Position numbers and translations under genes: made by a program | Notes under the pieces: generated by a model | Databases searched by the model: none | What the model was told of the DNA's origin: nothing | What the model saw: the letters and a program-made list of their open reading frames with translations, nothing else | Shown: one piece after another, positions 1-55,959 of the stretch | Position numbering within the stretch: position 1 is the stretch's first letter | Layout of the letters: each line of letters begins with the position of its first letter | Assembly: GCF_036676645.1 (NCBI RefSeq) | Contig: NZ_JAKFCM010000018.1 | Span: 5,680-69,679 of the forward strand | Source: Ramlibacter sp. | Lineage (GTDB): Bacteria > Pseudomonadota > Gammaproteobacteria > Burkholderiales > Burkholderiaceae_C | Length of the DNA stretch: 64,000 nucleotides | Reading direction: 5' to 3'

Positions 1-177
1 CTCAGCCGGATAATGACTGCGCAGTTCGCGCAGCCGCACCGGCTGCGACAGGGAGGACTCGAATGCCGCACAGAGGCGGGGCTTGCAGACCCCGGCGGCT
101 CGCGGGACCACCGCCTCGGGCGGGCGGCCGCAGCCACGACCCATCCTGCCCTTCGCGCGATGACAGGCGCGCAGGGG

Positions 178-199
178 CACTTTCCCTATCCCACTTTCC
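178..199 (+). promoter_or_regulatory. Direct repeat CACTTTCC (178-185 and 192-199) upstream of the first gene; possible regulator site
   Basis: Exact 8-nt direct repeat with 14-bp periodicity in a locally AT-richer stretch 27-48 nt upstream of ATG 226. Function not demonstrable from sequence. Confidence 0.25.
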
Positions 200-225
200 A
201 TTTCACACCTGAAGAGGAGGACTCC

Positions 226-893
226 ATGTTCACCATCCCTGCAGCATCCACACCGATGCACCGTGCCCTGCACGCGTTCCAGCTCCCGTTTCCCCCCGAC
301 GAGCCCGAGGCCGATGGCAGCCGCGAAATCGCCATCGAAGACCTGACCATCCGCTGCTTGCGCAAGGCATCCGACATCCGGGAGCTGAGCCAGCTGCGCC
401 GGCAGATCGATCTGAGGGCGGCCGCTTCGGCGGACCCGCAGTTCGCCACCCGCGAAAAAAAAGAGACGAATTGGGCCGGGTGTTCGCTTTCGAGCTTCAT
501 GGCCGCCTGATCGGCACCATTCGGCTGGTCCCTCTGGGCCACGGGCTCACCTTGACCGAGCAGTTACTCCAACTTTCCGATCCCCGCGCGCTTTCCCGCT
601 GGCCCAGGGCCTGGGACGCCGGACGGCTGGTTGTCGCACCCGAGTACCGGGTCGGCCAGGATGTCCTCAAGCGCTGCCTGCACCTGACACTCACCGATCT
701 GCTCGAGCACGCGAATGTGCAACACCTCGTCGGCTCCTGCACCCACGTCCTCAGCCGCCTGTACCGCCGCTTTGGCTTTTCGTTGATCGCACGCGATGTG
801 CTCCTGCCCGGCACCGAAAAGACCTACTGCCTCATCCACGGTGAGGTCGAGTGTGTCCGCGAAGCCCTGACTCCCGCCGCTGCCGAGGTCTGA
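226..893 (+). pseudogene. GNAT-superfamily N-acyltransferase (LuxI/FeeM-like layout), reading frame interrupted at an A8 run
   Basis: ATG 226 is preceded by GAGGAGG (214-220). The frame-1 ORF (inside 13..510) and the frame-3 ORF 471..893 join into one sensible protein (..FATREKK/RDELGRVFAFELHGRLIGTIRLVPL..WDAGRLVVAPEYR..) only with a -1 shift inside AAAAAAAA at 455-462. Family call is from motif pattern only. Confidence 0.6.
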
Positions 894-894
894 C

Positions 895-3393
895 GTGAAC
901 GCGCTCCAACAATTCTGGTCACGGCACGTCTGGTCCCACTACGTCGCGCATGCGGAGTACATGCGCCACCTTCCCAAGGCGGTGGGCGTGGTGGGTGCGA
1001 TCGCCTTCCCGCTGTTCTACGCCTTGCACGAGCTGCGCGGCACCAAGGGTTACGACAGCGCCTGGCTGCGCGGCACCGCGGCGCTGCTGTGCCTGGGTTT
1101 GGCCTTGCGCGACCACTGGCCGCAACGCTTCCGGTCATGGTACGTGCCGTGGTCGTACTTCACCTACCTGTTCTGCCTGCCGTTCCTCATGGTCTTCCTC
1201 GCCCTGAAGAACGGCGGTGGCTCGGTGGCGGTCGCCAACACCTTCATGGGCATCTTCTTCCTGGTGCTGCTGACCGACTGGCGCAATACCGTGGTGATGG
1301 TGGTCGCCGGTGCGGGCGCCGCTACCCTGGCCTACATCGCCACGACACCGCAGCCCGCAATGCCGGTGGACTACCTGGGCCGGCTGCCCACGCTGATCCT
1401 GGTGATCATCGGTGGCAACGCGTTCAAGCTGTCGGAAAAGCAGATCCAGGCCGAGCGACTGGACGCCGCCACGGTGCTGGCCGGCACGATCGCGCACGAG
1501 ATGCGCAATCCGCTTGGCCAGCTGCGCCACAGCCTGGCCGGCATCCAGCGCACGCTACCGGGACCGGGTACACTGGGCCGGCTGAGCCCGCTCGTGCCCG
1601 ATCAGGTCGACAAGCTCTACGAACAGCTGGCCAAGGGTGAGCAAGCCATCGACCGCGGCCTGCAGGTGATCACCATGACGCTGGACGCGCTCAGTGCCAA
1701 GCCGCTGGACGCCGCCGCGTTCGACCTGCTGTCGGCCGAGGAAGTGGTGCGCAAGGCGGTTGACGAGTACGGCTACGACAGCGATGCGGCGCGCCAAAGC
1801 ATGCGGGTCGACGTCCAGCAGGATTTCCAGTTCCGCGGCGACGAAACGGCCTACCTGTTCGTCCTGTTCAACCTCATCAAGAATGCGCTGTACTACCTTG
1901 GCCCGTATCCCGGAACACAGGTGACGATCACGATAGGCGACCACCGGGTCACGGTGCGGGACAACGGTCCGGGCATCGCGCCCGACGTGCTGCCCACGCT
2001 GTTCGAGCCGTTCCGATCCGTTGGCAAGTCGGGCGGAACCGGACTGGGGCTGGCGTACTGCCGGCGCGTGATGATGGCGTTCGGTGGTTCGATCCGCTGC
2101 CAGTCGCAGCCCGGCGCCTTCACCGAGTTCATCCTCGAATTCCCGATCGTGGGCGAGCAGGCCAGGGAGCAGCACCACGCCAATGCGCTTGAAAAGGCGC
2201 GCGAGGCCCTCGCCGGCAAGCGGCTGCTGATGGTGGAAGACGATGCGGCCCAGCGTGCCCTCAACCGTCGCAAGTTGCGCCCGGTGGAGCTCGTGGTCGA
2301 CGAGGCCGCCGACGGCCAGCGGGCGCTGGACCTGCTGGCCCGCTACCCCTACGACCTGGTGCTGCTCGACCTGAACATGCCGGCGGTCGACGGCTACCAG
2401 GTCGCGCAGCGGCTGCGCCAGGGCCAGGCACCCGCCAACCGTTACGTCCGCATCGTCGCCCACACCAGCGAGCCGGCGCAGGTGGCCCGCGTCAAGACGC
2501 AGCGCGCCGGCATGGACGGCTTCGTCGCCAAGCCCTGCGCCCAGCTGCCGCTGGTGCAGGCGCTGGTGGCGGCGCTGCAGCGGCACGGGGCCGAGGTGGC
2601 GGCGCATGCGCTGACAGGCCGGCGCGTGCTGCTGGCCGACGACAGCGCCTACAACCGGCGCGCGGTGGCCGCCTACCTGCGCGAAGCGGGGGCCGAGGTG
2701 GTCGAGGTCGACCACGGCCAGGCGGTGTTGCAGGCACTGGCCGCGGGAACGGCCTTCGACGCCGTGCTGATGGACCTGGGCATGCCCGGCATGGGCGGGC
2801 TGGACACGGCCCGCGCCGTGCGCGCCAGCCGGCAGCCCTGGGCGCGCGTGCCCATCGTGGCGCTGACCGCGCATTCCGACGCGCCGGCCATGCAGGGCGC
2901 TCGCGAGGCGGGGATGGATGGCTTCCTGGTCAAGCCGGTCGAGGCCATGCAGCTGTACGAGGCGCTGGGCGCGGTGCTGGCGGGCGGTGCCGCCCAGGCC
3001 CAGCGCCCGGCGGTACCGGCTGCGGGCGGCGACGACGCGCCGCTGCTCAACGAGGCCCGGCTGCAGAGCTACTGCCGGCTCGGACTGCTGGACGAACTGC
3101 TGGCCGACTACCTGCCCGAGATCGCGCGGCTGGTCGGCCAGCTCGAGCAGGCAGCGCAGGGGCAGGACCTCGCCCGTGCCCAGGAAACCCTGCACTCGCT
3201 GCTGGGCATGAGCGGCGAGGCGGGCGCACTCGCGCTGTACCAGCTGGTGCGGCGGGTCTACGTGCCGGTGCTGGAGGAGAGGCGCTGGCCGTCGGACGCC
3301 GGCTGGCTGCAAAAGGTGCAGGCCCTGGCGGAGCGCACCGAGCAGGCGCTGCGCGACTACGGCGCACGCCAGCAGCGTTCGCAGGAGGCCTAG
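895..3393 (+). CDS. Hybrid sensor histidine kinase: 6 TM helices, HisKA, HATPase, REC, REC, HPt
   Basis: 832-aa ORF with GTG start 1 nt after the upstream TGA. Six hydrophobic segments lie in aa ~29-180. H-box AHEMRNPL; G-boxes DNGPGI/GTGLGLAY. Two receiver domains (DLVLLDLNMP, DAVLMDLGMP) and a C-terminal HPt-like LHSLLGMSGEAGA. Confidence 0.9.
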   Translation: MNALQQFWSRHVWSHYVAHAEYMRHLPKAVGVVGAIAFPLFYALHELRGTKGYDSAWLRGTAALLCLGLALRDHWPQRFRSWYVPWSYFTYLFCLPFLMVFLALKNGGGSVAVANTFMGIFFLVLLTDWRNTVVMVVAGAGAATLAYIATTPQPAMPVDYLGRLPTLILVIIGGNAFKLSEKQIQAERLDAATVLAGTIAHEMRNPLGQLRHSLAGIQRTLPGPGTLGRLSPLVPDQVDKLYEQLAKGEQAIDRGLQVITMTLDALSAKPLDAAAFDLLSAEEVVRKAVDEYGYDSDAARQSMRVDVQQDFQFRGDETAYLFVLFNLIKNALYYLGPYPGTQVTITIGDHRVTVRDNGPGIAPDVLPTLFEPFRSVGKSGGTGLGLAYCRRVMMAFGGSIRCQSQPGAFTEFILEFPIVGEQAREQHHANALEKAREALAGKRLLMVEDDAAQRALNRRKLRPVELVVDEAADGQRALDLLARYPYDLVLLDLNMPAVDGYQVAQRLRQGQAPANRYVRIVAHTSEPAQVARVKTQRAGMDGFVAKPCAQLPLVQALVAALQRHGAEVAAHALTGRRVLLADDSAYNRRAVAAYLREAGAEVVEVDHGQAVLQALAAGTAFDAVLMDLGMPGMGGLDTARAVRASRQPWARVPIVALTAHSDAPAMQGAREAGMDGFLVKPVEAMQLYEALGAVLAGGAAQAQRPAVPAAGGDDAPLLNEARLQSYCRLGLLDELLADYLPEIARLVGQLEQAAQGQDLARAQETLHSLLGMSGEAGALALYQLVRRVYVPVLEERRWPSDAGWLQKVQALAERTEQALRDYGARQQRSQEA

Positions 3394-3402
3394 CATCCCG
3401 CC

Positions 3403-4572
3403 ATGGAATCGGGCATCGCACGGGGCATCCTGTTCGTCGACGACGACGAGCGCTCGCGCAAGTGGTTTGCGCGCAGCTTCGGCGGCGAGTTCGACGTCGC
3501 CACCGCCGGCAGCGCCGGCGAGGCGCTGGCCGCCCTGGCCGAGCGCGGCGACCGCTTCGCGGCCCTGGTCACCGACTACCGCATGCCGGAGCAGGACGGC
3601 ATGGACCTGCTGTGCCGCGTGCAGCGCGAGCACCGCCACGTGGTGCGGCTGCTGGCCACGGCGTATGCGGAGAAGGACGTGGCCATCGCCGCCGTCAACC
3701 AGGGCCGGGTGCTGCGCATCCTGGAAAAGCCGCTGGAGGACGAGCCCACCCGCGAGGCGCTGCGCGAGGCGCTGGCCCTGCACCGCACCCAGGCGCTGGA
3801 GCGCGCCATCAACGAGAACCGCGCGGCGGCGCTGCGCGAGACGCTGGGGTTCCTGGCACACGAGCTGAACACGCCGCTGGCGACGGTGCGAGGCTGCGTG
3901 GCCAGCGTCGCCTCGCGCCACCTGCCGCCCACGCCGCAGTCGGCGCCGGGGATCGCGCGCTTCGAGGAACACCACCCTGGCGAGCTGCTGGCCGCGCTGG
4001 AGCGGGCCGAGCGGCGCGCGCAGTACTGCCAGTCGCTGGTGTCCACCTTCCTGCAGTCCGCGCGCGACGCCTATCCCGGCGCGGCGCCGCAGACGGTCGG
4101 CGCGGCAGCGCTGCTGGCGGCCCTGCGCGACGAGTTCCCGTTCGAGGACGGCGAGCGCGGCTGGGTCTCGTTCCGCGTGCAGCAGGACTTCCGCCTGCCG
4201 GGCCGCCGCGACCTGCTGTACCTGGTGCTGTGCACGCTGGCCAAGAACGCGCTGCAGGCGCTGCGCGAAGCGCCGCAGCCCCGGCTGGCGGTCGAGGCCG
4301 GCTGCGATGCGGGCGAGGGCGGTGCGCGGGGCTGGATCCGTTTCCGCGACAACGGCCCGGGCATTCCAGCGGCCGTCCTCGAGCGCCTCACGCGCGAGCC
4401 GGTCACCACCCGCGCCGCCAGCGGCGGCAACGGGATGGGCCTGATGTTCTGCCAGCGCGTGATGCAGGCGGCGGGCGGCGCCGTGCGCGTCGAATCCGCC
4501 GAAGGCGCGGGCACCACGGTGTGGCTGGACTTCCTGCGCTCGGTGCAGCCGGCCGAAGCGGCGCCGGCCTGA
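3403..4572 (+). CDS. Response-regulator receiver fused to histidine kinase (REC-HisKA-HATPase)
   Basis: 389 aa. REC motifs are ILFVDDD, TDYRMPEQDG and LEKP. H-box is AHELNTPL. ATPase motifs are DNGPGIP and GNGMGLMFCQ. Starts 9 nt after the upstream stop. Confidence 0.85.
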   Translation: MESGIARGILFVDDDERSRKWFARSFGGEFDVATAGSAGEALAALAERGDRFAALVTDYRMPEQDGMDLLCRVQREHRHVVRLLATAYAEKDVAIAAVNQGRVLRILEKPLEDEPTREALREALALHRTQALERAINENRAAALRETLGFLAHELNTPLATVRGCVASVASRHLPPTPQSAPGIARFEEHHPGELLAALERAERRAQYCQSLVSTFLQSARDAYPGAAPQTVGAAALLAALRDEFPFEDGERGWVSFRVQQDFRLPGRRDLLYLVLCTLAKNALQALREAPQPRLAVEAGCDAGEGGARGWIRFRDNGPGIPAAVLERLTREPVTTRAASGGNGMGLMFCQRVMQAAGGAVRVESAEGAGTTVWLDFLRSVQPAEAAPA

Positions 4573-4684
4573 GGCGCACTGTTCCGCGCGCGACGCCCGC
4601 ACGTGCGCGCTCGCCGGCAGCGCCGACATTTCGCCGTAGCATTGACCCTTTCCGGACCACGAAGCCGCAAGAGAAGGAGACGAC

Positions 4685-6313
<1,629 letters not shown>

Positions 6314-6436
6314 ATCCTGCCCCTGTCGCTGTCTCCTGCGCGATAGGAGGGCCGTGTCTTACGGGCATTCCCTGACGGTTGCGCTGCACAAAAAAATGTA
6401 CCCTGCGCGCACTACGAACCACCCAGGAGACACGAG

Positions 6437-7741
6437 ATGAGTTTCGCGCTGAGGCATGTCACCGTGGCTGCCGTGCTCGCCATGTGCGGCACCGGCCTTG
6501 CGTTCGCCCAGGCCGCCAGGCCGGCCCCGGCCAAGCCGGCCGCCCAGGCCGCTGCGCCGGCAACGGGTGGCGCGCTCAAGAACGAAACCGTGCGCATCGC
6601 GTTCATGGATCCTCTGTCCGGCCCGTTCGCCAACGTGGGCCAGAACCAGCTCAAGAGCTGGCAGTTCGCCGCCGAGCAGCTGTCCGGTCGCGCCCCGTCG
6701 GGCGTGAAGTTCGAGGTGGTCGGCTTCGACAACAAGGGTTCGCCGCAGGAAAGCCTGAACACGCTGAAGGCCGCCATCGACCAGGGCTTCCGCTACGTCA
6801 CCCAGGGCAATGGATCGGGCGCGGCCACCGCCATCCTGGACGCCGTCTCCAAGCACAACGCGCGCAATCCGGGCAAGGAGGTCGTCTACTTCAACTATGC
6901 GGCGGTCGACCCGGCCCTGACCAACGAGAAGTGCGACTACTGGCACTTCCGGCTGGACGCCGACACCTCCATGAAGATGGAGGCGCTGACCTCCTTCATG
7001 AAGGACCAGCCCAACGTCAAGAGCGTCTACCTGCTCAACCAGAACTACTCGCACGGCCACCAGGTCGCCAAGTACTTCAAGGACGCGATCAAGCGCAAGC
7101 GTCCGGACGTCAAGATCGCCGGCGAGGACCTGCACCCGATCGGCCAGGTCAAGGACTTCTCGCCCTACGTCGCCAAGATCAAGCAGTCCGGCGCCGACAC
7201 CATCGTCACCGGCAACTGGGGCCAGGACCTCACGCTGCTGGTCAAGGCACTGAACGACGCCGGCCTGAAGATCCCGATGTACACCTACTACGCCGGCGTC
7301 ACCGGCACGCCGACGGCGCTGGCCGCCGGCGGCGACAGCGAGGTGTACGTCGTTGCGTACGGCCACTCCAACCACACGGGCGAGCTGGGCAAGCTGGCCG
7401 CCGACTTCCACAAGAAGTTCAACGACGACTACTACACCTTCGCCACCTACAACGGCATCAACCTGCTGAACAACGCCATGGCCAAGGCCGGTTCCACCGA
7501 CCCGGTCAAGGTGGCCCGGGCGCTGGAGGGCCTGTCGGTCAAGAGCTTCGCCGGCGACGTGCAGATGCGCGCGTCCGACCACCAGCTGCAGCAGTCGATG
7601 TACATCACCAAGTGGCAGAAGGCCAAGAAGGGCGAGTACAGCGTCGAGAACACCGGCTACACCTTCGTGAACATCAAGCAGATGGATCCGTACGTGTCCA
7701 GCACGCCGACCAGCTGCCAGATGAAGCGCCCGGGGGCGTGA
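6437..7741 (+). CDS. ABC transporter periplasmic substrate-binding protein (Liv/branched-chain amino-acid type fold)
   Basis: 434 aa with an N-terminal signal peptide (VAAVLAMCGTGLAFAQA). Type-I periplasmic binding protein pattern, followed by permease and ATPase genes. Confidence 0.85.
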   Translation: MSFALRHVTVAAVLAMCGTGLAFAQAARPAPAKPAAQAAAPATGGALKNETVRIAFMDPLSGPFANVGQNQLKSWQFAAEQLSGRAPSGVKFEVVGFDNKGSPQESLNTLKAAIDQGFRYVTQGNGSGAATAILDAVSKHNARNPGKEVVYFNYAAVDPALTNEKCDYWHFRLDADTSMKMEALTSFMKDQPNVKSVYLLNQNYSHGHQVAKYFKDAIKRKRPDVKIAGEDLHPIGQVKDFSPYVAKIKQSGADTIVTGNWGQDLTLLVKALNDAGLKIPMYTYYAGVTGTPTALAAGGDSEVYVVAYGHSNHTGELGKLAADFHKKFNDDYYTFATYNGINLLNNAMAKAGSTDPVKVARALEGLSVKSFAGDVQMRASDHQLQQSMYITKWQKAKKGEYSVENTGYTFVNIKQMDPYVSSTPTSCQMKRPGA

Positions 7742-7932: not shown

Positions 7933-8880
7933 TTGGAATTCTTCACCATCTCCCTCCTGAACGGCATCAGCTACGGGCTGCTGCTGTTCATGCTCAGTTC
8001 CGGCCTCACGCTGATCTTCAGCATGATGGGGGTGCTGAACTTCGCCCACGCCAGCTTCTACATGCTGGGAGCGTATTTCGCGTTCACCACTGCGCAGCTG
8101 CTGGGCTACTGGCCGGCGCTGGTGGTGGCGCCGCTGCTGGTGGCCGTGCTGGGCGCGCTGTTCGAGAAGTACTGCCTGCGCCGGGTGCACAAGTTCGGCC
8201 ACGTCGCCGAGTTGCTGATCACCTTCGGCCTGTCCTTCATCCTGCTCGAGATGGTGCAGCTGGTGTGGGGCACGGGTTCGGTCGACTACCGGGTGCCGGA
8301 AGTGCTGGACGGGCCGCTGTTCACGCTCTACGGCACGCAGTTCCCGATGTATCGCGGCTTCATGATGCTGGTGGCGGTGCTGATGCTGGTGGCCATCTGG
8401 CTGCTGCTCACGCGCACCCGCATCGGCCTGGTGATCCAGGCGGCGCTCACGCACCCGCAGACCGTGGAGTCGCTGGGCCACAACGTGCCACGGGTGTTCA
8501 TGCTGGTTTTCGGCGGCGGCGCCGCATTGGCCGGACTGGCGGGCGTGATCGGGGGCAACGCCTTCGTCACCGAGCCGGGCATGGCGGCGACGGTGGGTTC
8601 GATCATCTTCGTGGTCGTGGTGGTCGGCGGCATGGGCTCGCTGTCGGGCGCCTTCCTGGCCTCGCTGCTGATCGGCGTCGTGCAGACCTTCGCCGTGGGC
8701 GTGGATGCGTCCATCCAGGGCGCACTCGACACCGTCGGGCTGCAGGTTTCATCCGACACGTTCGGGTACGCGCTGTGGAAGCTCAAGATCAGCCAGGTGG
8801 CTCCCATCCTGCCTTACCTGTTCCTCGTGCTGATGCTGATCTTCCGGCCCAAGGGCCTGCTCGGCACGCGGGAGGGCTGA
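7933..8880 (+). CDS. ABC transporter permease (LivH-type)
   Basis: 315 aa polytopic membrane protein (EFFTISLLNGISYGLLLFMLSSGLTLIF..). TTG 7933 is the only start after in-frame stop TAG 7912-7914, and no SD is visible. Confidence 0.85.
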   Translation: MEFFTISLLNGISYGLLLFMLSSGLTLIFSMMGVLNFAHASFYMLGAYFAFTTAQLLGYWPALVVAPLLVAVLGALFEKYCLRRVHKFGHVAELLITFGLSFILLEMVQLVWGTGSVDYRVPEVLDGPLFTLYGTQFPMYRGFMMLVAVLMLVAIWLLLTRTRIGLVIQAALTHPQTVESLGHNVPRVFMLVFGGGAALAGLAGVIGGNAFVTEPGMAATVGSIIFVVVVVGGMGSLSGAFLASLLIGVVQTFAVGVDASIQGALDTVGLQVSSDTFGYALWKLKISQVAPILPYLFLVLMLIFRPKGLLGTREG

Positions 8881-10288: not shown

Positions 10289-11067
10289 CGGCGGAGTACG
10301 CCCTGGAACTGCGCGAGCTGCGCAAGAGCTTCGGCAAGACGGAAATCATCCGCGGCGCCAACCTGGCGGTGCGCCCGGGCGAGCGGGTGGCGGTGATCGG
10401 CCCGAACGGCGCCGGCAAGTCCACGCTGTTCAACCTGATCAGCGGCCGCTTCGAGCCCAGCAGCGGCCAGGTGCTGCTCAACGGCCAGCGCATCGATGGC
10501 AAGCGGCCCTACGAGATCAACCGGCTGGGCCTGTCGCGCAGCTTCCAGATCACCAACATCTTCCCCAAGCTCAGCGTCTTCGAGAACCTGCGCTGCGGCG
10601 TGCTGTGGAGCCTGGGCTACCGCTACACCTTCTTCAAGTTCCTCGCGGGCCTGGATGACGCCAACGAGCGTGCCGAGCAGTTGCTGGAAATGATCCACCT
10701 GGAGCGCAAGCGCGACGTGCTGGCCATGAACCTGACTTACGCCGAGCAGCGCGCCCTGGAGATCGGGGTGACGATCGGCGGCGGCGCCGGCGTCATCCTG
10801 CTGGACGAGCCCACCGCCGGCATGAGCAAGAGCGAAACACGGCGCTTCATCGAGCTGATCAAGGAAGTGACTGTCGGCAAGACGCTGCTGACCGTGGAAC
10901 ACGACATGGGCGTGGTGTTCGGCCTGGCCGACAAGATCGCCGTCGTGGTGTACGGCGAGGTGATCGCCTTCGACACCCCGGAGAAGGTGCGAGCCAATCA
11001 GCGGGTGCAGGAAGCCTACCTCGGCTCGCAGGTCGCGGACGCGCAGGTGGGCGCGGGGGCTCATTGA
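10285..11067 (+). CDS. ABC transporter ATP-binding protein (LivG-type)
   Basis: ATG 10285 overlaps the upstream stop (ATGA). Walker A GPNGAGKST, signature motif region, and Walker B ILLDEP. It lies in frame inside the longer artefactual ORF 9145..11067. Confidence 0.9.
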   Translation: MTAEYALELRELRKSFGKTEIIRGANLAVRPGERVAVIGPNGAGKSTLFNLISGRFEPSSGQVLLNGQRIDGKRPYEINRLGLSRSFQITNIFPKLSVFENLRCGVLWSLGYRYTFFKFLAGLDDANERAEQLLEMIHLERKRDVLAMNLTYAEQRALEIGVTIGGGAGVILLDEPTAGMSKSETRRFIELIKEVTVGKTLLTVEHDMGVVFGLADKIAVVVYGEVIAFDTPEKVRANQRVQEAYLGSQVADAQVGAGAH

Positions 11068-11762
11068 TGCTGAAGATCGAGAACCTGCATGCCTTCTACG
11101 GCAAGAGCCATGTGCTGCACGGCGTGCACTTCGACGTGCAGCCCGGCGAGATCGTGGCGCTGCTGGGTCGCAACGGCTCGGGCCGCTCGACCACGGCCAA
11201 AGCCATCATGGGTATGGTCGAGTGCACCGGCTCGGTGGACTGGAAGGGCCAGCCCACCCTGGGCCGCAAGCCCTACGAGATCGCCCACCTCGGCATCGGC
11301 TACGTGCCGGAAAACCGCGAGATCTTCCCCACGCTGACGGTGCACCAGAACCTGATGCTGGGACAGAAGCGCGCCGGCCAGAAGGGCCGCTGGTCGTTCG
11401 ACGACATGTACGGGATGTTCCCGCGCCTGAAGGAGCGCCAGCACACCGAGGCCGGCGTGCTGTCGGGCGGCGAGCAGCAGATGCTGACGCTGTGCCGCAC
11501 CCTGATGGGCGACCCGGACCTGATCATCATCGACGAGCCCACCGAAGGGCTGGCGCCCAAGATCGTCGAACTGGTCGGCGAGTACCTCAAAAAGCTCAAG
11601 GAGCGCGGCCTGTCCGTGCTGCTGATCGAGCAGAAGCTGACCATCGCGATGACCGTGTCCGACCGGGCACTGGTGATGGGGCATGGCAGCATCGTCTTTC
11701 AGGGCACGCCAGACAGCCTGCGGGCCGACGCCTACACTCGCAAGGAGTGGCTGGAAGTGTGA
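11064..11762 (+). CDS. ABC transporter ATP-binding protein (LivF-type)
   Basis: 232 aa with Walker A GRNGSGRST, signature LSGGEQQ and Walker B IIIDEP. Has a 4-nt overlap with the upstream gene. Confidence 0.9.
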   Translation: MMLKIENLHAFYGKSHVLHGVHFDVQPGEIVALLGRNGSGRSTTAKAIMGMVECTGSVDWKGQPTLGRKPYEIAHLGIGYVPENREIFPTLTVHQNLMLGQKRAGQKGRWSFDDMYGMFPRLKERQHTEAGVLSGGEQQMLTLCRTLMGDPDLIIIDEPTEGLAPKIVELVGEYLKKLKERGLSVLLIEQKLTIAMTVSDRALVMGHGSIVFQGTPDSLRADAYTRKEWLEV

Positions 11763-11763
11763 T

Positions 11764-11876
11764 CACGAAGAAATCGCTGCGCGATTCCTTCGTGGTTCTG
11801 ATCAGTTGATGAAGGACCGGCAAAGCCGGAGCCTTCATCAAAGGGTGTCCGCGCTGCATGCTGTTCCGCGCGGACA
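11764..11876 (+). terminator. Three consecutive hairpins after the ABC operon
   Basis: Hairpin 1 (11764-11794) has a 14-bp stem with one mismatch and a 3-nt loop. Hairpin 2 (11806-11841) is TTGATGAAGG..CCGGC-AAA-GCCGG..CCTTCATCAA. Hairpin 3 (11846-11876) is TGTCCGCGC-N13-GCGCGGACA. None has a strong U-tract. Confidence 0.4.
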
Positions 11877-11923
11877 GTTCGACCTTCGGTCGTGGTCGGA
11901 GTCCCAGCCGTGACAACGCGGCG

Positions 11924-11951
11924 TTGCAGCGCAGCAAGCCTTTCCTAGAAT
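11924..11951 (+). promoter_or_regulatory. Sigma70-like promoter TTGCAG-N16-TAGAAT for the beta-oxidation genes, followed by palindrome GAACG-AG-CGTTC (11962-11973)
   Basis: The hexamers and their 16-nt spacing were read directly. The palindrome sits between the -10 hexamer and the SD AGGAG (11986-11990). Confidence 0.4.
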
Positions 11952-11997
11952 CGCCCGAAGCGAACGAGCGTTCTTTTTCTTTCCAGGAGCACCGCAC

Positions 11998-14100
11998 ATG
12001 ACGGCTGAATACAAGGTGCACGGCGACGTGGCCGTGATCACGATGAACAACCCGCCGGTCAACGGGCTGGGGCTGGCCCTGCGGCAGGCGTTTGCCGCCG
12101 GGCTGGAGCAGGCCAATGCCGATCCGGCCGTCAAGGCCATCGTGGTCACGGGCGCCGACAAGGCCTTTTCGGGCGGCGCCGACATCAAGGAGTTCGGCTC
12201 GCCCAAGGCGATCGCCGAGCCCAACCTGCTGTCGCTGATCCTGGCGCTGGAGAACTCGGCCAAGCCCACGGTGGCGGCCCTGCACTCGGTGTGCATGGGG
12301 GGCGGCCTGGAGCTCTCGCTCGGCTGCCATTACCGCATCGCCGCCCCCGGCTGCAACGTGGCGCTGCCCGAGGTCAAGCTGGGCCTGATCCCCGGTGCCG
12401 GCGGCACGCAGCGCCTGCCGCGCGTGCTGGGCGTCGAAACCGCCCTGAACATGATCGTGTCGGGCGAGCCGGTCAAGAGCGAGCTGCTGGCCCAGCAGCC
12501 CGGCCAGAAGCTGTTCGACCGCATGGCGGCTTCGCCCGAGTCGCTGCTGGAGGAGGCGCTGGCCTTCGCGCGCGAAGTGGCCGGCAAGCGCCCGCTGCCG
12601 CGCGTGCGTGACCTGCCGTGCAAGCACCCGCGCGGCGACGCCTACTTCCAGTTCGCGCGCAACATGGTCAAGGGCATGGCCAGGAACTTCCCGGCGCCGG
12701 GCAAGTGCGTCGATGCGGTCGAAGCCGCCACGAAGAAGAAGTTCGACGACGGCATGCTGTTCGAGCGCGAGATCTTCCTCAACCTCATGCTCACGCCCGA
12801 GAGCCGCGCGCTGCGCCACATCTTCATGGCCGAGCGCGCCGCCTCCAAGATTCCCGACGTGCCGGAAGGCACGCCCAAGCGCGAGATCCAGTCGGTGGCC
12901 GTCATCGGTGCCGGCACCATGGGCGGCGGTATCTCCATGAACTTCCTGAACGCCGGCATCCCGGTGACCCTTCTCGAGATGAAGCAGGAAGCGCTGGACC
13001 GCGGCGTCGCCACCATCCGCAAGAACTACGAGGCCCAGGTCAAGAAGGGCAAGCTCAAGCAGGACAAGTACGAGCAGCGCATGGCCCTGCTCAAGACCAC
13101 GCTGTCCTACGAGGACATCAAGGGCGCCGACCTGGTGATCGAGGCGGTATTCGAGGAGCTGGGCGTCAAGCAGAAGGTGTTCGAGACGCTCGACAAGACC
13201 ATGAAGCCCGGCGCGATCCTGGCCTCCAACACCTCCACGCTGGACGTCAACAAGATCGCCGCCTTCACCAAGCGCCCGCAGGACGTGGTCGGCATGCACT
13301 TCTTCAGCCCGGCCAACGTGATGAAGCTGCTGGAGGTGGTGCGCGGCGACAAGACGGGCAAGGACGTGCTGGCCACCGTGATGGCGATCGCCAAGAAGAT
13401 CCGGAAGACCGCCGTGGTGTCCGGCGTCTGCGACGGCTTCATCGGCAACCGCATGATCGAGCAGTACAGCCGCCAGGCCGGCTTCCTGCTGGACGAGGGC
13501 GCCACCCCGCAGCAGGTGGACAAGGCCATCGAGAAGTTCGGCTTCGCCATGGGTCCGTTCCGCATGGGCGACCTGGCCGGCAACGACATCGGCTGGGCGA
13601 TCCGCAAGCGCCGCGCCGCCGAGCGGCCCGACATGAAGTACAGCCGCACCGCCGACAAGCTGTGCGAACTGGGCCGCTTCGGCCAGAAGACCGGCGCCGG
13701 CTGGTACGACTACCAGCCCGGCAAGCGCGACGCGATTCCTTCGAAGCTGGTCGAGGACATGGTCGCTGCGCACCGCAAGGAACTCGGCATCGAGCCGCGC
13801 AAGATCTCCGACGAGGAAATCGTGCAGCGCCTGGTGTTCTCGCTGGTCAACGAGGCCGCGCACATCCTGGAGGAGGGAATCGCCTCGCGTGCCAGCGACA
13901 TCGACATGGTGTACCTGACCGGCTACGGCTTCCCGATCCACCGTGGCGGCCCCATGCTGTATGCCGACCAGGTCGGCCTGTTCAACGTCATGCAGGCCAT
14001 GAAGCGCTTCCAGCGCAATCCGCGCGACGATGCCGCCTTCTGGGAGCCGGCGCCGCTGATCAGGAAGCTGGTGGCCGAAGGCAAGGGACTGACCGGCTGA
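11998..14100 (+). CDS. Bifunctional enoyl-CoA hydratase / 3-hydroxyacyl-CoA dehydrogenase (FadB/FadJ-like)
   Basis: 700 aa. Crotonase-fold N-terminus (FSGGADI, MGGGLELSL) and an NAD-binding GAGTMGGGI dehydrogenase C-terminal half. Confidence 0.9.
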   Translation: MTAEYKVHGDVAVITMNNPPVNGLGLALRQAFAAGLEQANADPAVKAIVVTGADKAFSGGADIKEFGSPKAIAEPNLLSLILALENSAKPTVAALHSVCMGGGLELSLGCHYRIAAPGCNVALPEVKLGLIPGAGGTQRLPRVLGVETALNMIVSGEPVKSELLAQQPGQKLFDRMAASPESLLEEALAFAREVAGKRPLPRVRDLPCKHPRGDAYFQFARNMVKGMARNFPAPGKCVDAVEAATKKKFDDGMLFEREIFLNLMLTPESRALRHIFMAERAASKIPDVPEGTPKREIQSVAVIGAGTMGGGISMNFLNAGIPVTLLEMKQEALDRGVATIRKNYEAQVKKGKLKQDKYEQRMALLKTTLSYEDIKGADLVIEAVFEELGVKQKVFETLDKTMKPGAILASNTSTLDVNKIAAFTKRPQDVVGMHFFSPANVMKLLEVVRGDKTGKDVLATVMAIAKKIRKTAVVSGVCDGFIGNRMIEQYSRQAGFLLDEGATPQQVDKAIEKFGFAMGPFRMGDLAGNDIGWAIRKRRAAERPDMKYSRTADKLCELGRFGQKTGAGWYDYQPGKRDAIPSKLVEDMVAAHRKELGIEPRKISDEEIVQRLVFSLVNEAAHILEEGIASRASDIDMVYLTGYGFPIHRGGPMLYADQVGLFNVMQAMKRFQRNPRDDAAFWEPAPLIRKLVAEGKGLTG

Positions 14101-14181: not shown

Positions 14182-15357
14182 ATGACCCAAGCCGTCATCG
14201 TCTCCACCGCCCGCACGCCCCTGACCAAGAGCTGGAAGGGCGCCTTCAACATGACGCACGGCGCCACGCTCGGCGGACACGTCGTCAGGCACGCGGTCCA
14301 GCGTGCCGGCATCGAGCCCGGCGCGGTCGAAGACGTGCTCATGGGCTGTGCCAATCCCGAAGGCGCCACCGGCTCCAACATCGCGCGCCAGATCGCGCTG
14401 ATGGCCGACCTGCCGATCACCGTCTCCGGCATGACCATCAACCGGTTCTGCTCCTCCGGCCTGCAGACCATCGCCATGGCCAGCCAGCGCGTGATCGCCG
14501 GCGAGGGCGAGGTGTACGTGGCCGGCGGGGTGGAAAGCATCTCGTGCGTGCAGCAGGAGATGAACCTGCACATGATCAAGGACCCGGACCTGGAGCAGAA
14601 GAAGCCCGAGATCTACTGGTCCATGCTGCAGACGGCCGAGCAGGTGGCCAAGCGCTACGGCATCGGCCGCGACGCGATGGACGAGTACGGCGCCGCCAGC
14701 CAGCAGAAGGCCTGCGCCGCCCAGGCCGCCGGCAAGTTCGAGGACGAGATCGCGCCCATCACCGTCAAGGCCGGCGTGGCCGACCCGGTGATGGGGCTGC
14801 GCACCAAGGAGGTCACCGTCAGCAAGGACGAGGGCCTGCGCGAGGGCACGACCAAGGAAGGCATCAGCGGCATCAAGCCGGCGCTGCCCGGCGGCGTGAT
14901 CGCGGCCGGCAACGCCAGCCAGTTCTCCGACGGTGCCGGCGCCTGCGTGGTGGTCAGCGAGGGCTATGCATCCAAGCACAACCTCAAGCCGATCGGCCGC
15001 TTCCTCGGCTTTGCCGTGGCCGGCTGCGAGCCCGACGAAATGGGCATCGGCCCGGTGTTCGCCGTACCCAAGGTCCTGCACAAGCTCGGACTGAAGGTCG
15101 GCGACATCGACCTGTGGGAGCTGAACGAAGCCTTTGCGGTGCAGGTGCTGTATTGCCGCGACAAGCTGGGCATCCCGGCCGACCGGCTGAACGTGAACGG
15201 CGGCGCCATTGCGGTGGGCCACCCCTACGGCGTGTCGGGGCAGCGCCTGACCGGCCACGCGCTGATCGAGGGCAAGCGGCGCGGCGCCAGGCGCGTCTGC
15301 GTGACCATGTGCATCGGCGGCGGCATGGGGGCCGCGGGGGTGTTCGAGGTGCTTTGA
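14182..15357 (+). CDS. Acetyl-CoA C-acyltransferase (thiolase, FadA-like)
   Basis: 391 aa with thiolase motifs NRFCSSGLQ (active Cys), [12 protein letters not shown] and CIGGGMG. Confidence 0.9.
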
Positions 15358-26244: not shown

Positions 26245-27336
26245 ATGGCGCGCGCCCTCCGCCTGTACGCCGGCCCGCGGGCGCGCCGCCACGTCGGGCA
26301 GCACGGCCTGGGGCCGCAGGACGTCAGCGTGGTGCCGGGCGCAGCGGGCGGACCCAAGGGGCTCATCCTCGGTCCGCTGGACCGCTTCCTCTTCGGCGAG
26401 TGGCTGCCGCAGTCGCGGCAGCCGGTGCACCTGGTCGGGGCCTCGATCGGCGCCTGGCGCATGGCCACCGCCTGCCTTCATGATCCCGTGGCCGCCTTCG
26501 AACGCCTGGAGCGCGACTACATCGCGCAGGACTACGTGCTGGAGCCGGGCCGCAAGACGCCGACCGCACGCCACGTCAGCGAACGGTTCGCCGCCAACCT
26601 GGTCGACTTCTATGGCGGGCGGGTGCGGCAGGTGCTGGACCACCCGCGCTACCGCGTGCACATCGTCACGGCGCGCGGCCGCCACGTGCTGTCGCGCGAG
26701 CACCGCTGGGGGACGCCGCTGGGTTACCTGGGCGCCTGGCTGTCCAACGGCCTGCACCGGCGCGCCCTGTGCGCCTGGCTGGAACGGGTGGTGTTCTCCT
26801 CCGGGCCGGCCCCCGGCGCGCTGAGCCTGCCCTTCGACGACCAGGACTACCGCACGCGGCAGGTGCACCTGACCGAGGCCAACTTCGACCTGGCACTGCA
26901 GGCGAGCTGCTCCATCCCCTTCCTGCTGCAGGCCGTCCACGACATTCCCGGCGCGCCCCCGGGTGCGTACTGGGACGGCGGCATCACCGACTACCACCTG
27001 CACCTGAACTACGCCGCGGCCCACCCGCAGGGGCTGGTGCTCTATCCGCATTTCCAGAAGGCGGTGGTGCCCGGCTGGCTGGACAAGACCTGGCGCTGGC
27101 GGCACGGCGCGACGGCGTTCCTGGACAACACCCTCGTGCTGGCGCCCGATCCGCGGTGGGTGCAGGGGCTGCCCAACGGCAAGCTGCCGGACCGCACCGA
27201 CTTCACGCGCTACGGCACCGACCTGGCCGCACGGATGAAGGTGTGGCAGGCGGCGGCGGCGGCGAGCCGGCAGCTGGCGGACGAATTCGCGCAGTGGCTG
27301 GAGCGGCCGGACCCGGGGCGGGTGGAGGCGTTGTAA
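26245..27336 (+). CDS. Patatin-like phospholipase family protein
   Basis: 363 aa with the GxSxG nucleophile elbow (GASIGA) and a later DGG motif (WDGGITD). Confidence 0.7.
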   Translation: MARALRLYAGPRARRHVGQHGLGPQDVSVVPGAAGGPKGLILGPLDRFLFGEWLPQSRQPVHLVGASIGAWRMATACLHDPVAAFERLERDYIAQDYVLEPGRKTPTARHVSERFAANLVDFYGGRVRQVLDHPRYRVHIVTARGRHVLSREHRWGTPLGYLGAWLSNGLHRRALCAWLERVVFSSGPAPGALSLPFDDQDYRTRQVHLTEANFDLALQASCSIPFLLQAVHDIPGAPPGAYWDGGITDYHLHLNYAAAHPQGLVLYPHFQKAVVPGWLDKTWRWRHGATAFLDNTLVLAPDPRWVQGLPNGKLPDRTDFTRYGTDLAARMKVWQAAAAASRQLADEFAQWLERPDPGRVEAL

Positions 27337-36783: not shown

Positions 36784-37590
36784 ATGTTCGTCGATTCGCA
36801 TTGCCACCTGAGTTTCCCTGAACTGTCCAGCCGGCTGGACGAGATCCGCACCGCCATGGCGCAGGCCGGCGTCGACCGGGCGCTGTGCATCTGCACGACG
36901 CTGGAGGAATTCGGGGCCGTCCACGCACTGGCCACGGCCCATGACAACTTCTGGGCGTCGGTGGGCGTGCACCCGGACAACGAAGGCGTCACCGAGCCTT
37001 CGCAGGATGACCTGCTGCGGCGCGCCGCCCTGCCCAAGGTGGTCGCGATCGGGGAAACCGGGCTGGACTATTACCAGATGGACGAGCGCAAGGGGGGCCG
37101 CAGCGTGGCCGACCTGGGGTGGCAGCGCGAGCGCTTCCGCACCCACATCCGCGCCGCGCGCCGGTGCGGCAAGCCGCTGATCATCCACACCCGGTCAGCC
37201 TCGGCCGACACCCTCGCCATCCTGAAGGAAGAGGGCGAGGACGGCTCCGCGGGCAGCGCCGGCGGCGTCTTCCACTGCTTCACCGAGACCGCCGCAGTGG
37301 CCCGGGCGGCGCTCGACCTGGGCTTCTACATCTCGTTTTCCGGCATCCTGACCTTCCGCAACGCGGCCGACCTGCGCGAGGTGGCGTCATTCGTGCCGGA
37401 AAACCGGCTGCTGATCGAGACCGACAGTCCCTACCTGGCCCCGGTGCCGTTCCGCGGCAAGACCAACGACCCCTCGCTGGTCGTGCACGTCGCACGGCAG
37501 GTCGCGGAGGTGCGCGGCCTGGCCGTGGAGGCCGTCGGGGAGCTGACCAGCCGCAACTTCGAGCAGCTCTTCAAAGGGGTTGCAGCATGA
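36784..37590 (+). CDS. TatD-family metal-dependent hydrolase
   Basis: MFVDSHCHL start at ATG 36784 (GTG 36769 is an alternative). Motifs are GETGLDY, IHTR and ETDSPYL. Confidence 0.85.
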   Translation: MFVDSHCHLSFPELSSRLDEIRTAMAQAGVDRALCICTTLEEFGAVHALATAHDNFWASVGVHPDNEGVTEPSQDDLLRRAALPKVVAIGETGLDYYQMDERKGGRSVADLGWQRERFRTHIRAARRCGKPLIIHTRSASADTLAILKEEGEDGSAGSAGGVFHCFTETAAVARAALDLGFYISFSGILTFRNAADLREVASFVPENRLLIETDSPYLAPVPFRGKTNDPSLVVHVARQVAEVRGLAVEAVGELTSRNFEQLFKGVAA

Positions 37591-38246
37591 GAAATTACTT
37601 CAAGTTCATTGCCTATCTATCTGTATTGGTTAGTGTTTCTATCGCTCACGCCGGATCCTACGAGGACTATTTCGCGGCCGTGAAGAAAGACGATCCGGCG
37701 GCCATCACCGAGCTGCTGCAGCGTGGATTCGACCCCAACACGCCCAGCCCCGACGGCCAGCATGCGCTGTACCTGTCCCTGCGCGACGGCGCCACGAAGG
37801 TGGCGCAGGCGCTGGTCGCCTGGCCGGCCACCCAGGTCGACGGCCGCAACAGCCACGACGAGACTCCGCTGATGATGGCGGCGCTCAAGGGGCATGCAGA
37901 GATCGCCCGGCGGCTGGTCGCGCGCGACGCCGACGTCAACAAGCCCGGCTGGGCGCCGCTGCATTACGCCGCCACCGGCGGGCACCTGGCGATCATGGCG
38001 CTGCTCCTGGAGCACCACGCCTTCATCGACGCCGAGTCGCCCAACGGTACGACGCCGTTGATGATGGCCGCGCACTACGGCACGCCGGACGCCGTGAAGC
38101 TGCTGCTGGACGCGGGCGCCGACACGGCCATGAAGAACCAGCTCGGCCTGACCGCCATCGACTTCGCGAAGCGCGCCAACCGGCCGGACGCCGCCGAGCT
38201 GATCGCCCAGCACATCCGAAGCCAGCAGCCGCGCGGCAAGTGGTGA
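37587..38246 (+). CDS. Secreted ankyrin-repeat protein
   Basis: ATG 37587 overlaps the tatD stop (ATGA). It has a signal peptide ending SIAHA and ankyrin motifs (TPLMMAALKGH, APLHYAATGGH, TPLMMAAHYG). Confidence 0.8.
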   Translation: MRNYFKFIAYLSVLVSVSIAHAGSYEDYFAAVKKDDPAAITELLQRGFDPNTPSPDGQHALYLSLRDGATKVAQALVAWPATQVDGRNSHDETPLMMAALKGHAEIARRLVARDADVNKPGWAPLHYAATGGHLAIMALLLEHHAFIDAESPNGTTPLMMAAHYGTPDAVKLLLDAGADTAMKNQLGLTAIDFAKRANRPDAAELIAQHIRSQQPRGKW

Positions 38247-43614: not shown

Positions 43615-44835
<1,221 letters not shown>

Positions 44836-44841
44836 GGTGAA

Positions 44842-45495
44842 TCAGAACTGGTACTTCAGGCCGATGGTGAAAAGGGTCTGGTCGCCGCCGCGGCCGACCG
44901 AACCGTCGAGCTGCACCAGGGGCGCGACCAGCCCGCGCAGCCCGGCCTGGAGGGTCGGCCGGGTGTGGCGGGCGCCGAACCACTCGATGTGCGGTGTCAC
45001 GTGCCCGATCTCCCGCTCGTAAGCCACGCCCCAGGTGGGCGCAGCGGGCTCGTGCCGCGGCTTGCTCGCGCCCAGGTTGAAGTGGAAGCTGCCGAGCGGC
45101 TCGGAATTGCAGGTGAGCAGTCCGTTCAGGTAGGCCGCACTGCCATCCCCGGAGGCCCGCGAGGCGCCCGCGACCAGGCCGGCATTGCAGCCGCTGGATG
45201 CGGAAGGCGTGGCCTGCCACTTGGCCTGCACGGCCGTGAGGGTCTGCCTGGCCACGCTGTCCTGCGCGAGCAGGGCGCCGAGCTCGAGCCCGCGGATGGG
45301 AGCGTAGGCAGGCGCCACGTTGAACAGGCGGGCCCCCTCGCTCCCGGCAACCCAGGTCTCGAGCTGGCCGCGCCCGGGCTCGTTGACGTTCGCGTCGTCG
45401 ACGGCGAGTGGGCGGCCGGCGTGGGCTCCCACGGTCGATCCAGCCACGCAGGCAACCAGCAGCAGATGCCGCAACGAAGCGATGCGAGATGGCAT
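44842..45495 (-). CDS. Putative outer-membrane beta-barrel protein (MetA-pathway/transporter-like)
   Basis: Start at MPSRIASLRHLLLVACVAGSTVGAHA (ATG 45495, SD GAGGAA). It has alternating beta-strand patterns and a C-terminal ..GLKYQF aromatic terminus. Confidence 0.5.
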   Translation of the reverse strand: MPSRIASLRHLLLVACVAGSTVGAHAGRPLAVDDANVNEPGRGQLETWVAGSEGARLFNVAPAYAPIRGLELGALLAQDSVARQTLTAVQAKWQATPSASSGCNAGLVAGASRASGDGSAAYLNGLLTCNSEPLGSFHFNLGASKPRHEPAAPTWGVAYEREIGHVTPHIEWFGARHTRPTLQAGLRGLVAPLVQLDGSVGRGGDQTLFTIGLKYQF

Positions 45496-45609
45496 CGGTC
45501 TGTTCCTCGGGGCGAGAAGCGGAGTCACGGCATGGGAGCGGAGCGAACGGGTCGCGAACGACCCGGTAGCCTGCGGGCACTTCGTCGCTCGCCCCCGGCT
45601 TGCGATGGG

Positions 45610-54870: not shown

Positions 54871-55917
<1,047 letters not shown>

Positions 55918-55934
55918 GGAAACCACACAGGAAA

Positions 55935-55959
55935 GGCCCGGTTCCCGGGCCCTTTTTTT
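55935..55959 (+). terminator. Intrinsic terminator/attenuator between dctP and dctQ
   Basis: Stem GGCCCGG (55935-55941), loop TTC, stem CCGGGCC (55945-55951), then C and a T7 run (55953-55959). It is preceded by AAA and ends 4 nt before the dctQ ATG. Confidence 0.7.

Follow-up and report, generated by a model that had tools for sequence, protein, structure and literature searches.

Organization of the locus

The window analyzed here is a stretch of 64,000 nucleotides from Ramlibacter sp. (contig NZ_JAKFCM010000018.1, assembly GCF_036676645.1), numbered from its first letter. Near its left end three genes on the + strand form a candidate signalling module, encoding a protein of the GNAT superfamily, a hybrid histidine kinase with a membrane-embedded sensor domain, and a smaller protein in which a receiver domain (REC) precedes a histidine kinase (REC-kinase). 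The table of open reading frames (ORFs) and the raw sequence place these genes and their junctions exactly where an initial annotation of this DNA had put them. The GNAT gene is preceded by a Shine-Dalgarno-like GAGGAGG (214-220, +), read from the sequence and located 5 nt 5' of the start codon; the same arrangement of Shine-Dalgarno motif and start is found at the GNAT gene of R. henchirensis. The gene itself is divided over two overlapping frames. ORF-a, the zero frame (226-510, +, frame 1; ATG 226, TGA 508-510), supplies residues 1-79 of the full-length protein. ORF-b, in the -1 frame (462-893, +; TGA 891-893), supplies residues 80-222 of the fused protein and contains GTIRLVP, WDAGRLVV and RLYRRFGF. 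The motifs that the initial annotation had listed for the GNAT protein were recovered as LRRQIDL, EKK-RDE (across the junction of the two frames), GTIRL and WDAGRLVV.

The hybrid kinase (832 aa, +) runs from GTG 895, 1 nt past the GNAT stop, to TAG 3391-3393. Homology searches and hydropathy delimit a CqsS/LqsS-type six-helix membrane sensor domain in its first 185 aa (895-1449, +). The cytoplasmic part (1450-3393, +), delimited by Pfam together with hydropathy and residue mapping, comprises a dimerization and histidine phosphotransfer (DHp) region, a HATPase domain (aa 315-418), two receivers (REC1 and REC2) and a histidine-containing phosphotransfer domain (HPt). The REC-kinase, a REC-HisKA-HATPase protein of 389 aa with receiver residue Asp58, is encoded from ATG 3403 to 4572 (+). 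Searches of window positions 1-6000 revealed neither a sigma-70-like promoter nor an intrinsic terminator or an Rfam family.

A very probable conserved recoding site in the GNAT gene

Reading the GNAT protein at full length requires that one base of a run of eight adenines (A8, 455-462, +) is read twice. The junction of the two frames is cgc GAA AAA AAA GAG acg, and re-reading of one A yields ...ATREKK-RDELGRVFAFE... The run includes the heptamer A_AAA_AAA (456-462), in the correct zero-frame phase for tandem -1 slippage, and lies inside a conserved G-A8-GAGA(C/T) at 454-467. Without a shift, ORF-a is predicted to continue with a 15-residue tail to TGA 508-510, resulting in a product of 94 aa. 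The DNA has a G+C content of ~66-75%, A7 runs are expected 0.22 times, and the A8 run is the sole tract of at least eight adenines in the 64 kb. Just two other A7 runs occur in the window, one intergenic (6390-6396, +) before a Peripla_BP_6-type binding-protein gene (6437), the other (55953-55959, -) just after a DctP-type gene (54904-55917).

A protein-based scan with one genome per species returned 33 true relatives of the GNAT protein. Loci of Actinoplanes and Micromonospora (L036-L066) were set aside, their match being confined to a short RLYRRFGF stretch. A pattern scan of metagenomes, which permitted runs of A7 to A10, returned 120 contigs, 90 of which were family members by tblastn; the remaining 30, in which the run is A7 or interrupted, matched the pattern by chance. 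The G-A8-GAGA element was found to be identical in 118 occurrences (113 unique), made up of 27 genome occurrences, the R. terrae locus L028 and the 90 metagenome contigs. A -1 shift is required at every occurrence where ORF-a is detectable, including 82 of 82 such metagenome contigs. The genome relatives with the run always read GAAAAAAAAGAGA, at the same codon. The 27 genome occurrences are from Ramlibacter, Caenimonas, Acidovorax, Polaromonas and Paraburkholderia, and in each an upstream zero-frame ORF longer than 70 codons is continued by the GNAT body in the -1 frame. Both the A8 and the two overlapping ORFs recur in R. henchirensis. The length of the run did not vary among the family members from metagenomes either: exactly A8 was present in 90/90, and A7, A9 or A10 in none. 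The zero-frame stop lies 12 to 255 nt past the run; the length of the ORF-a tail is variable. Among the 113 unique junctions, conservation is lowest at the third codon position of the zero frame upstream of the run and of the -1 frame downstream of it.

Several relatives encode the same residues in a single frame, as GAA AAG AAG CGC GAC or GAC AAG AAA AGG GAC. These are single chains that read E-K-K-R-D without an insertion or deletion at the junction, and in a rough neighbour-joining tree they are scattered among the frameshifted members. A distant in-frame subfamily (L026, L030-L034, and protein P0119), with junction DPVKDALG and no A run, forms the outgroup. Most relatives in the databases have been called as proteins of 140 aa representing the second part only, and a few of 195-235 aa read E-K-K-R-D-E in one frame. 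The truncated 140-aa "N-acetyltransferases" of annotation pipelines are explained by the recoding site.

The initial annotation had treated the frameshift as a defect to be repaired and had missed recoding. The invariant A8 and the coding constraint in both frames indicate instead that it is, very probably, a conserved recoding site, and this is the most solid new result of the analysis. Recoding may proceed by ribosomal -1 frameshifting or by slippage of RNA polymerase to A9. As the latter would yield an identical protein, the two mechanisms are not separable from sequence. Two loci are irregular: that of Ramlibacter sp. MMS24-I3-19 (L002) has A7 (7986-7992) and a REC-kinase split into 326 + 68 aa (10953-12124), and that of R. 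terrae (L028) has, besides the A8, a second frameshift deeper in the GNAT gene, from 5852 onwards. These irregularities are probably homopolymer assembly errors or local decay.

The GNAT protein belongs to the FeeM branch

The FeeM family (PF21926) was the sole Pfam family above cut-off for the fused GNAT protein (35.5 versus 27 bits), and it was the best Pfam family for 24 of 27 GNAT relatives. The protein thus is a member of the FeeM branch of acyl-transferring GNATs, and no housekeeping acetyltransferase family passed its cut-off. The LuxI part of the LuxI/FeeM-like assignment proposed in the initial annotation did not hold: the score against the LuxI family Autoind_synth (PF00765) was 11.6 bits, below the cut-off of 24 (E 0.2). 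No NCBIfam family matched at E <= 1, including the model of PEP-CTERM/exosortase-associated acyltransferases. The best sequence match in the PDB was the N-acyl-homoserine lactone (AHL) synthase TofI, an insignificant one (E 0.14), in which ERDxYD/EKKRDE, RLLP/RLVP and WELSRF/WDAGRL are colinear.

An AlphaFold2 model of the fused 222-aa protein showed a single GNAT domain (pLDDT 85.9, pTM 0.80). Residues 36-83 of ORF-a build beta1-alpha1-alpha2 in this model, and the helix across the junction has a pLDDT of 94-97. A Foldseek search with the model ranked FeeM (2G0B) first (E 3.4e-7, TM 0.57-0.70), with LasI at rank 47.

The sensor domain and the kinases

Six hydrophobic segments were found by hydropathy in aa 25-180 of the hybrid kinase (~29-47, 57-73, 86-106, 111-129, 133-151 and 162-180). 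The H-box AHEMRNPL (aa 200-207), with the histidine at 201 (codon 1495-1497), follows directly after helix 6. A CqsS sequence was used purely as a probe for real Vibrio comparators; the hits were P0281, matching 88% of the probe at 100% identity, and P0287 (CqsS by its NCBI name). The window kinase aligned with these in BLASTP at E 1e-25 and 2e-20, respectively, over all six helices and the H-box; the membrane part alone matched Vibrio CqsS at 7e-14, and profile-profile comparison (hhalign) of the sensor with CqsS gave a probability of 99.5%. The motifs FPxxY, YE/D..LR, RDxxP, CLPF, LxN and AHEMRNPL are colinear with CqsS. On the basis of these alignments the N-terminal membrane domain is almost certainly homologous to the CqsS sensor, a resemblance that the initial annotation had suggested, and no transporter or MASE domain matched the kinase N-terminus. 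The sensor motifs common with CqsS lie mainly in helices 1-3, the region of the common ligand-binding core of CqsS/LqsS receptors (PMC3376566). A profile of the family membrane domain matched 1023 proteins, two of which JGI names CqsS. Many are ~430-450 or ~650-760 aa long, lengths that presumably resemble those of LqsS and CqsS. A word-indexed homologue search with the sensor domain yielded 5 fragments only, and tblastn against plasmids gave no match.

Pfam confirmed the domain order of both kinases, with HisKA, HATPase_c, two Response_reg and Hpt in the hybrid kinase and Response_reg, HisKA and HATPase_c in the REC-kinase. The phospho-residues of the hybrid kinase, besides H201, are Asp 492 and 627 of the receivers and His 767 of the HPt. 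The kinase core scored best against the LuxN model. As stated in the initial annotation, neither protein has an output domain by Pfam. The REC-kinase is probably the acceptor of the HPt phosphoryl group. The kinases of the distant in-frame subfamily (L026, L030-L034) are CqsS-like but shorter, aligning only through the first receiver.

Linkage across genomes and neighbouring genes

A kinase with a CqsS-like sensor was found directly after the GNAT gene in 33 of 34 genome loci, the 34th being too short to tell, and in 48 of the 51 metagenome contigs with enough sequence. This adjacency extends to the distant in-frame subfamily, and the GNAT stop and kinase start overlap by 4 nt in 10 of 16 loci measured. 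Most loci of the Ramlibacter and Caenimonas types have a REC-kinase orthologue after the kinase, as do 6 of the 12 metagenome contigs that extend far enough downstream; it is lacking after the kinase in L003, L008, L009, L013, L026 and L030-L035. The three-gene synteny supposed by the initial annotation thus holds for the GNAT-kinase pair, with the REC-kinase present in only part of the loci. No CqsA-type (Aminotran_1_2) gene was found in L001 (R. henchirensis), in L002 or among the 10 window ORFs tested.

The AMP-ligase gene that follows the module heads a conserved block of liv-ABC and beta-oxidation genes. It is found after the module only in part of the Ramlibacter-type loci, in one of which (L002) a desaturase gene is inserted. 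The comparison of this adjoining fatty-acid-CoA ligase with rpfB, made in the initial annotation, was therefore rejected as a general feature.

A gene for a heme-oxygenase-like iron enzyme (PF14518, ~220 aa) lies immediately before or after the GNAT gene in 35 related loci, about one third. Its positions are 7127-7783 in L002, 6462-7127 in L003, 6470-7126 in L008 and ~6483-7154 in L019; 30 metagenome loci (e.g. L071, L108 and L128) also have it, and the window is without it. In the PDB this enzyme is related to 3DDE (E 4e-49) and remotely to the mangotoxin enzyme MboA. A tailoring role, by which the signal would be altered in some cassette types, is possible, and an optional tailoring enzyme fits small-molecule biosynthesis.

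Elsewhere in the window, beta-oxidation genes include those for a thiolase (14182-15357) and an acyl-CoA dehydrogenase (51032-52192). Among the beta-oxidation genes are also genes for a patatin-like phospholipase (26245-27336, +, 363 aa) and an ankyrin-repeat protein (37119-38246, +, 375 aa). A PAS-HisKA-HATPase kinase (43618-44835, -) and an adjoining ORF of 228 aa on the same strand (44842-45528, -) are a separate two-component pair. Upstream of the module, the motif CTCAGCCnnATAATGAnnGCGCAGnTnGCGC is shared by window positions 1-60 and L001 positions 7663-7710, at differing distances from the start codon, and is absent from 96 other loci. The motif ATAATGAnnGCGCAG, common to the window and R. 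henchirensis and present in no other locus, was discarded because it reflects relatedness only.

Joint divergence of GNAT and sensor

Comparison of the window with a related locus, L010, revealed a change in similarity inside the kinase gene. Nucleotide identity is 88-97% from ~1950 to 6300, through the REC-kinase and ligase genes, except for one 150-nt bin (83%) and an intergenic bin (84%), while over the GNAT, sensor and DHp it is 43-75%. At the protein level the GNAT is 50% identical and the sensor 44%, compared to 82% for the kinase core, 96% for the REC-kinase and 97% for the ligase. Between L010 and R. henchirensis (L001) the left flank is 86% identical and the sequence beyond the ligase 91%. 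The value is 78% across REC-kinase, ligase and the greater part of the kinase and 67% for the GNAT, and no alignment was obtained for the 5' sensor region. GNAT and sensor thus diverge together between conserved flanks. Over 16 loci the identity of the GNAT correlates with that of the sensor (Spearman 0.58; partial r 0.69 after correction for the kinase core) and not with that of the kinase core (partial r 0.06), a result that is only suggestive because locus pairs are not independent.

Cassettes can also occur in tandem. At L005 (1-7488) a tandem GNAT1-HK1-GNAT2-HK2, each pair with its own A8, precedes a single REC-kinase and ligase, and the GNAT scan showed several genomes with two or more cassettes. 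L012 shares a contig with L030, and L009 a metagenome-assembled genome with L020; several cassettes per genome are common.

Proposed mechanism

The data are best accounted for by a fast-diversifying synthase-receptor signalling cassette of Comamonadaceae and related Burkholderiales, to which a probability of about 0.55 is assigned. The core of the initial annotation, a candidate signalling module with a GNAT beside a CqsS-type receptor, thereby finds support, with its function as a proposal. That GNAT and kinase are a cognate synthase-receptor pair is considered rather likely; N-acyl amide chemistry of the GNAT is possible but somewhat less than probable.

In the proposed mechanism, translation of the synthase would start at ATG 226 and most ribosomes would end at TGA 508-510. 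A fraction would enter the -1 frame at A_AAA_AAA, by slippage of tandem tRNA-Lys or on transcripts to which RNA polymerase had added a ninth A, so that the 222-aa FeeM-like acyl-transferring GNAT would be the minority product. Recoding may in this way hold synthase output low or make it conditional. The enzyme would join a fatty acyl group, from acyl carrier protein (ACP) or coenzyme A (CoA), to an amino compound, giving a lipophilic N-acyl signal. The six-helix CqsS-type domain of the kinase, whose gene begins 1 nt downstream, would detect this signal within the membrane. Binding of the ligand may then, in analogy to CqsS, shift the balance between kinase and phosphatase activity. The phosphoryl group would pass from H201 to D492/D627, to H767 of the HPt and to Asp58 of the REC-kinase, after which the kinase of the latter would act on a regulator encoded elsewhere.

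Several observations weigh against this interpretation. Searches of the PDB with the GNAT protein and with the family profile were not significant. In the Foldseek search serotonin and spermidine acetyltransferases came within ~5-fold of the E-value of FeeM 2G0B; with such generic acetyltransferases close behind FeeM, the fold search does not fix the substrate class. No output regulator of the module was identified. The correlation between GNAT and sensor was obtained with 16 non-independent loci, and the left flank of the window's own cassette lies outside the window, which begins 225 nt 5' of the GNAT gene. An upstream Shine-Dalgarno-like motif was present at just 9 of 113 slippery sites, and the 60 nt past the run showed no downstream structure (mean z -0.31, no Rfam match). 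Because no such element is conserved, the efficiency of recoding may be low. Stimulatory elements are not obligatory for -1 recoding, and transcriptional slippage needs none.

Alternative explanations

Three alternatives concern the A8 junction itself. The GNAT gene of the window is interrupted, and L002 (A7, split REC-kinase) and L028 (second frameshift) show that real errors or decay do occur in this family. The gene might therefore be a decaying pseudogene, or its A8 a sequencing or assembly error, the kinase then being an orphan CqsS-type receptor for signals made elsewhere. However, 118 independent sequences, of various genera and projects, agree in run length, phase and flanks, coding constraint has been kept in both frames and the two halves fold as one domain in the AlphaFold2 model, which makes this explanation extremely improbable. 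Hardly more credible is phase variation at the DNA level, by which slipped-strand mispairing would convert A8 (off) into A9 (on) and back within a population. Homopolymer tracts are well known as contingency loci, and DNA polymerase, too, can slip on poly-A (PMC3711429). Yet the 90 family contigs from metagenomes revealed no other length although the pattern permitted it, nor did the genome occurrences except the error-prone L002, and the in-frame lineages arose via GC-rich recoding, not by gain of an A. ORF-a and ORF-b might also be translated separately and form a two-chain GNAT, ribosomes binding at the purine-rich run to start ORF-b. A TTG or GTG does follow soon after the run in the window (471, 483) and in some relatives, and gene callers routinely report the 140-aa ORF-b. 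Against such a split enzyme, ATG, GTG and TTG are all absent from the -1 frame between codons -6 and +10 at 54 of the 113 junctions, so that no independent start of ORF-b is conserved. AAAGAGA is moreover a poor anti-Shine-Dalgarno match, the in-frame relatives are single chains lacking an indel at the junction, and the ORF-a tail varies in length. A two-chain enzyme is slightly less far-fetched than phase variation and still very improbable. Given the A8 invariance, the constraint in both frames, the in-frame relatives and the single-domain model, the junction is poorly explained by error, by decay, by phase variation or by a two-chain enzyme.

The fourth alternative accepts the linked pair and questions the role of the enzyme. 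The GNAT might have a membrane lipid or an amine as its substrate, might acylate the receptor or might inactivate signals that reach the cell, the sensor then reading an exogenous or metabolic lipid. The fold search, which does not separate FeeM from small-molecule acetyltransferases, the lack of LuxI membership and the nearby genes for fatty-acid activation and beta-oxidation are all compatible with such a role. On the other hand, the ligase linkage is not general, and the joint divergence of enzyme and sensor, the tandem cassettes and the optional tailoring enzymes are the pattern of a cognate signal-receptor pair and not of housekeeping modification. This alternative is regarded as unlikely, though far less so than those concerning the junction, and the synthase-receptor cassette is retained as the preferred interpretation.

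Comparison with known signalling and recoding systems

The module resembles the alpha-hydroxyketone quorum-sensing systems CqsA/CqsS of Vibrio and LqsA/LqsS/LqsR of Legionella in its homologous six-helix sensor fused to a histidine kinase and receiver. As in the CqsS/LqsS systems, where the receptor gene lies beside the synthase gene (PMC3376566), the receptor gene adjoins that of the candidate synthase. The partner here is a FeeM-type GNAT, unlike CqsA and LqsA, which are PLP-dependent acyl-CoA transferases. The kinase also differs from CqsS in having two receivers and its own HPt, with a REC-kinase downstream in the place of LuxU/LuxO or LqsR. To our knowledge, every described CqsS-type receptor is paired with a CqsA-type synthase and a hydroxyketone signal. 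A search of full-text literature found no paper tying CqsS/LqsS to GNAT, FeeM or N-acyl amino acid synthases. The combination of a known receptor family with a new synthase class would be new, as would the recoding case. It is tentatively proposed, with the balance slightly against it, that the module represents an unrecognised class of Gram-negative quorum sensing. In this class a FeeM/LuxI-superfamily enzyme would make an N-acyl autoinducer (neither AHL nor hydroxyketone) for a CqsS-type receptor, with co-diversifying specificity types and an output set by ancient recoding. If true, a second, unrelated synthase class would serve the CqsS receptor fold, extending the range of chemistry among membrane-sensed autoinducers, and soil and freshwater Comamonadaceae would gain a signalling system of their own.

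With FeeM-type N-acyl amino acid synthases the GNAT shares the Pfam family (PF21926), and FeeM is its best structural match, with generic acetyltransferases close behind. Some of these synthases also sit near two-component systems. The module differs from FeeM in that it has no acyl carrier protein or fee-type cluster, a CqsS-type kinase as partner and a recoding site, and from exosortase-associated acyltransferases in that their NCBIfam model was not matched. Likeness to LuxI-type AHL synthases consists of the weak colinear motifs shared with TofI and of a kinase core nearest to the LuxN model. Unlike LuxM/LuxN of Vibrio harveyi, the sensor is not LuxN-like and Autoind_synth scores below cut-off.

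The A8 site is comparable to other cases of poly-A recoding (IS1/IS3 transposases, dnaX and the magnesium chelatase cluster), in which a -1 shift on A_AAA_AAA or a longer A run fuses two ORFs. For the magnesium chelatase poly-A cluster of Pseudomonas, Burkholderia and Delftia, reporters gave 10% of -1 product with A7, 40% with A9 and 63% with A11 (PMC3711429). In contrast to those sites, the run here lies in a candidate signal synthase gene, has a fixed length of A8 and has no stimulatory element that could be detected; the GNAT family is not listed in the survey of poly-A sites or its supplements (PMC3711429). In a review of recoding, the one link to quorum sensing is FseA of a Mesorhizobium integrative and conjugative element, with its +1 frameshift (PMC5009743), and the full-text search found no paper tying frameshifting to an autoinducer synthase. 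If the synthase role is correct, the A8 would be the first case of an autoinducer synthase with built-in recoding. It is in any case a clean new candidate for conserved recoding in a non-mobile bacterial gene, with the in-frame relatives as natural controls.

The cassette-like divergence is reminiscent of agrBDC of Staphylococcus and comQXP of Bacillus, pherotype cassettes in which a hypervariable signal gene and sensor part lie between conserved flanks. It points to "dialects" specific to strains, a phenomenon described mainly for peptide systems of Gram-positive bacteria; instead of the peptide signals of agr and comQXP, the dialects of the present module would be set by an acyltransferase and a CqsS-type receptor.

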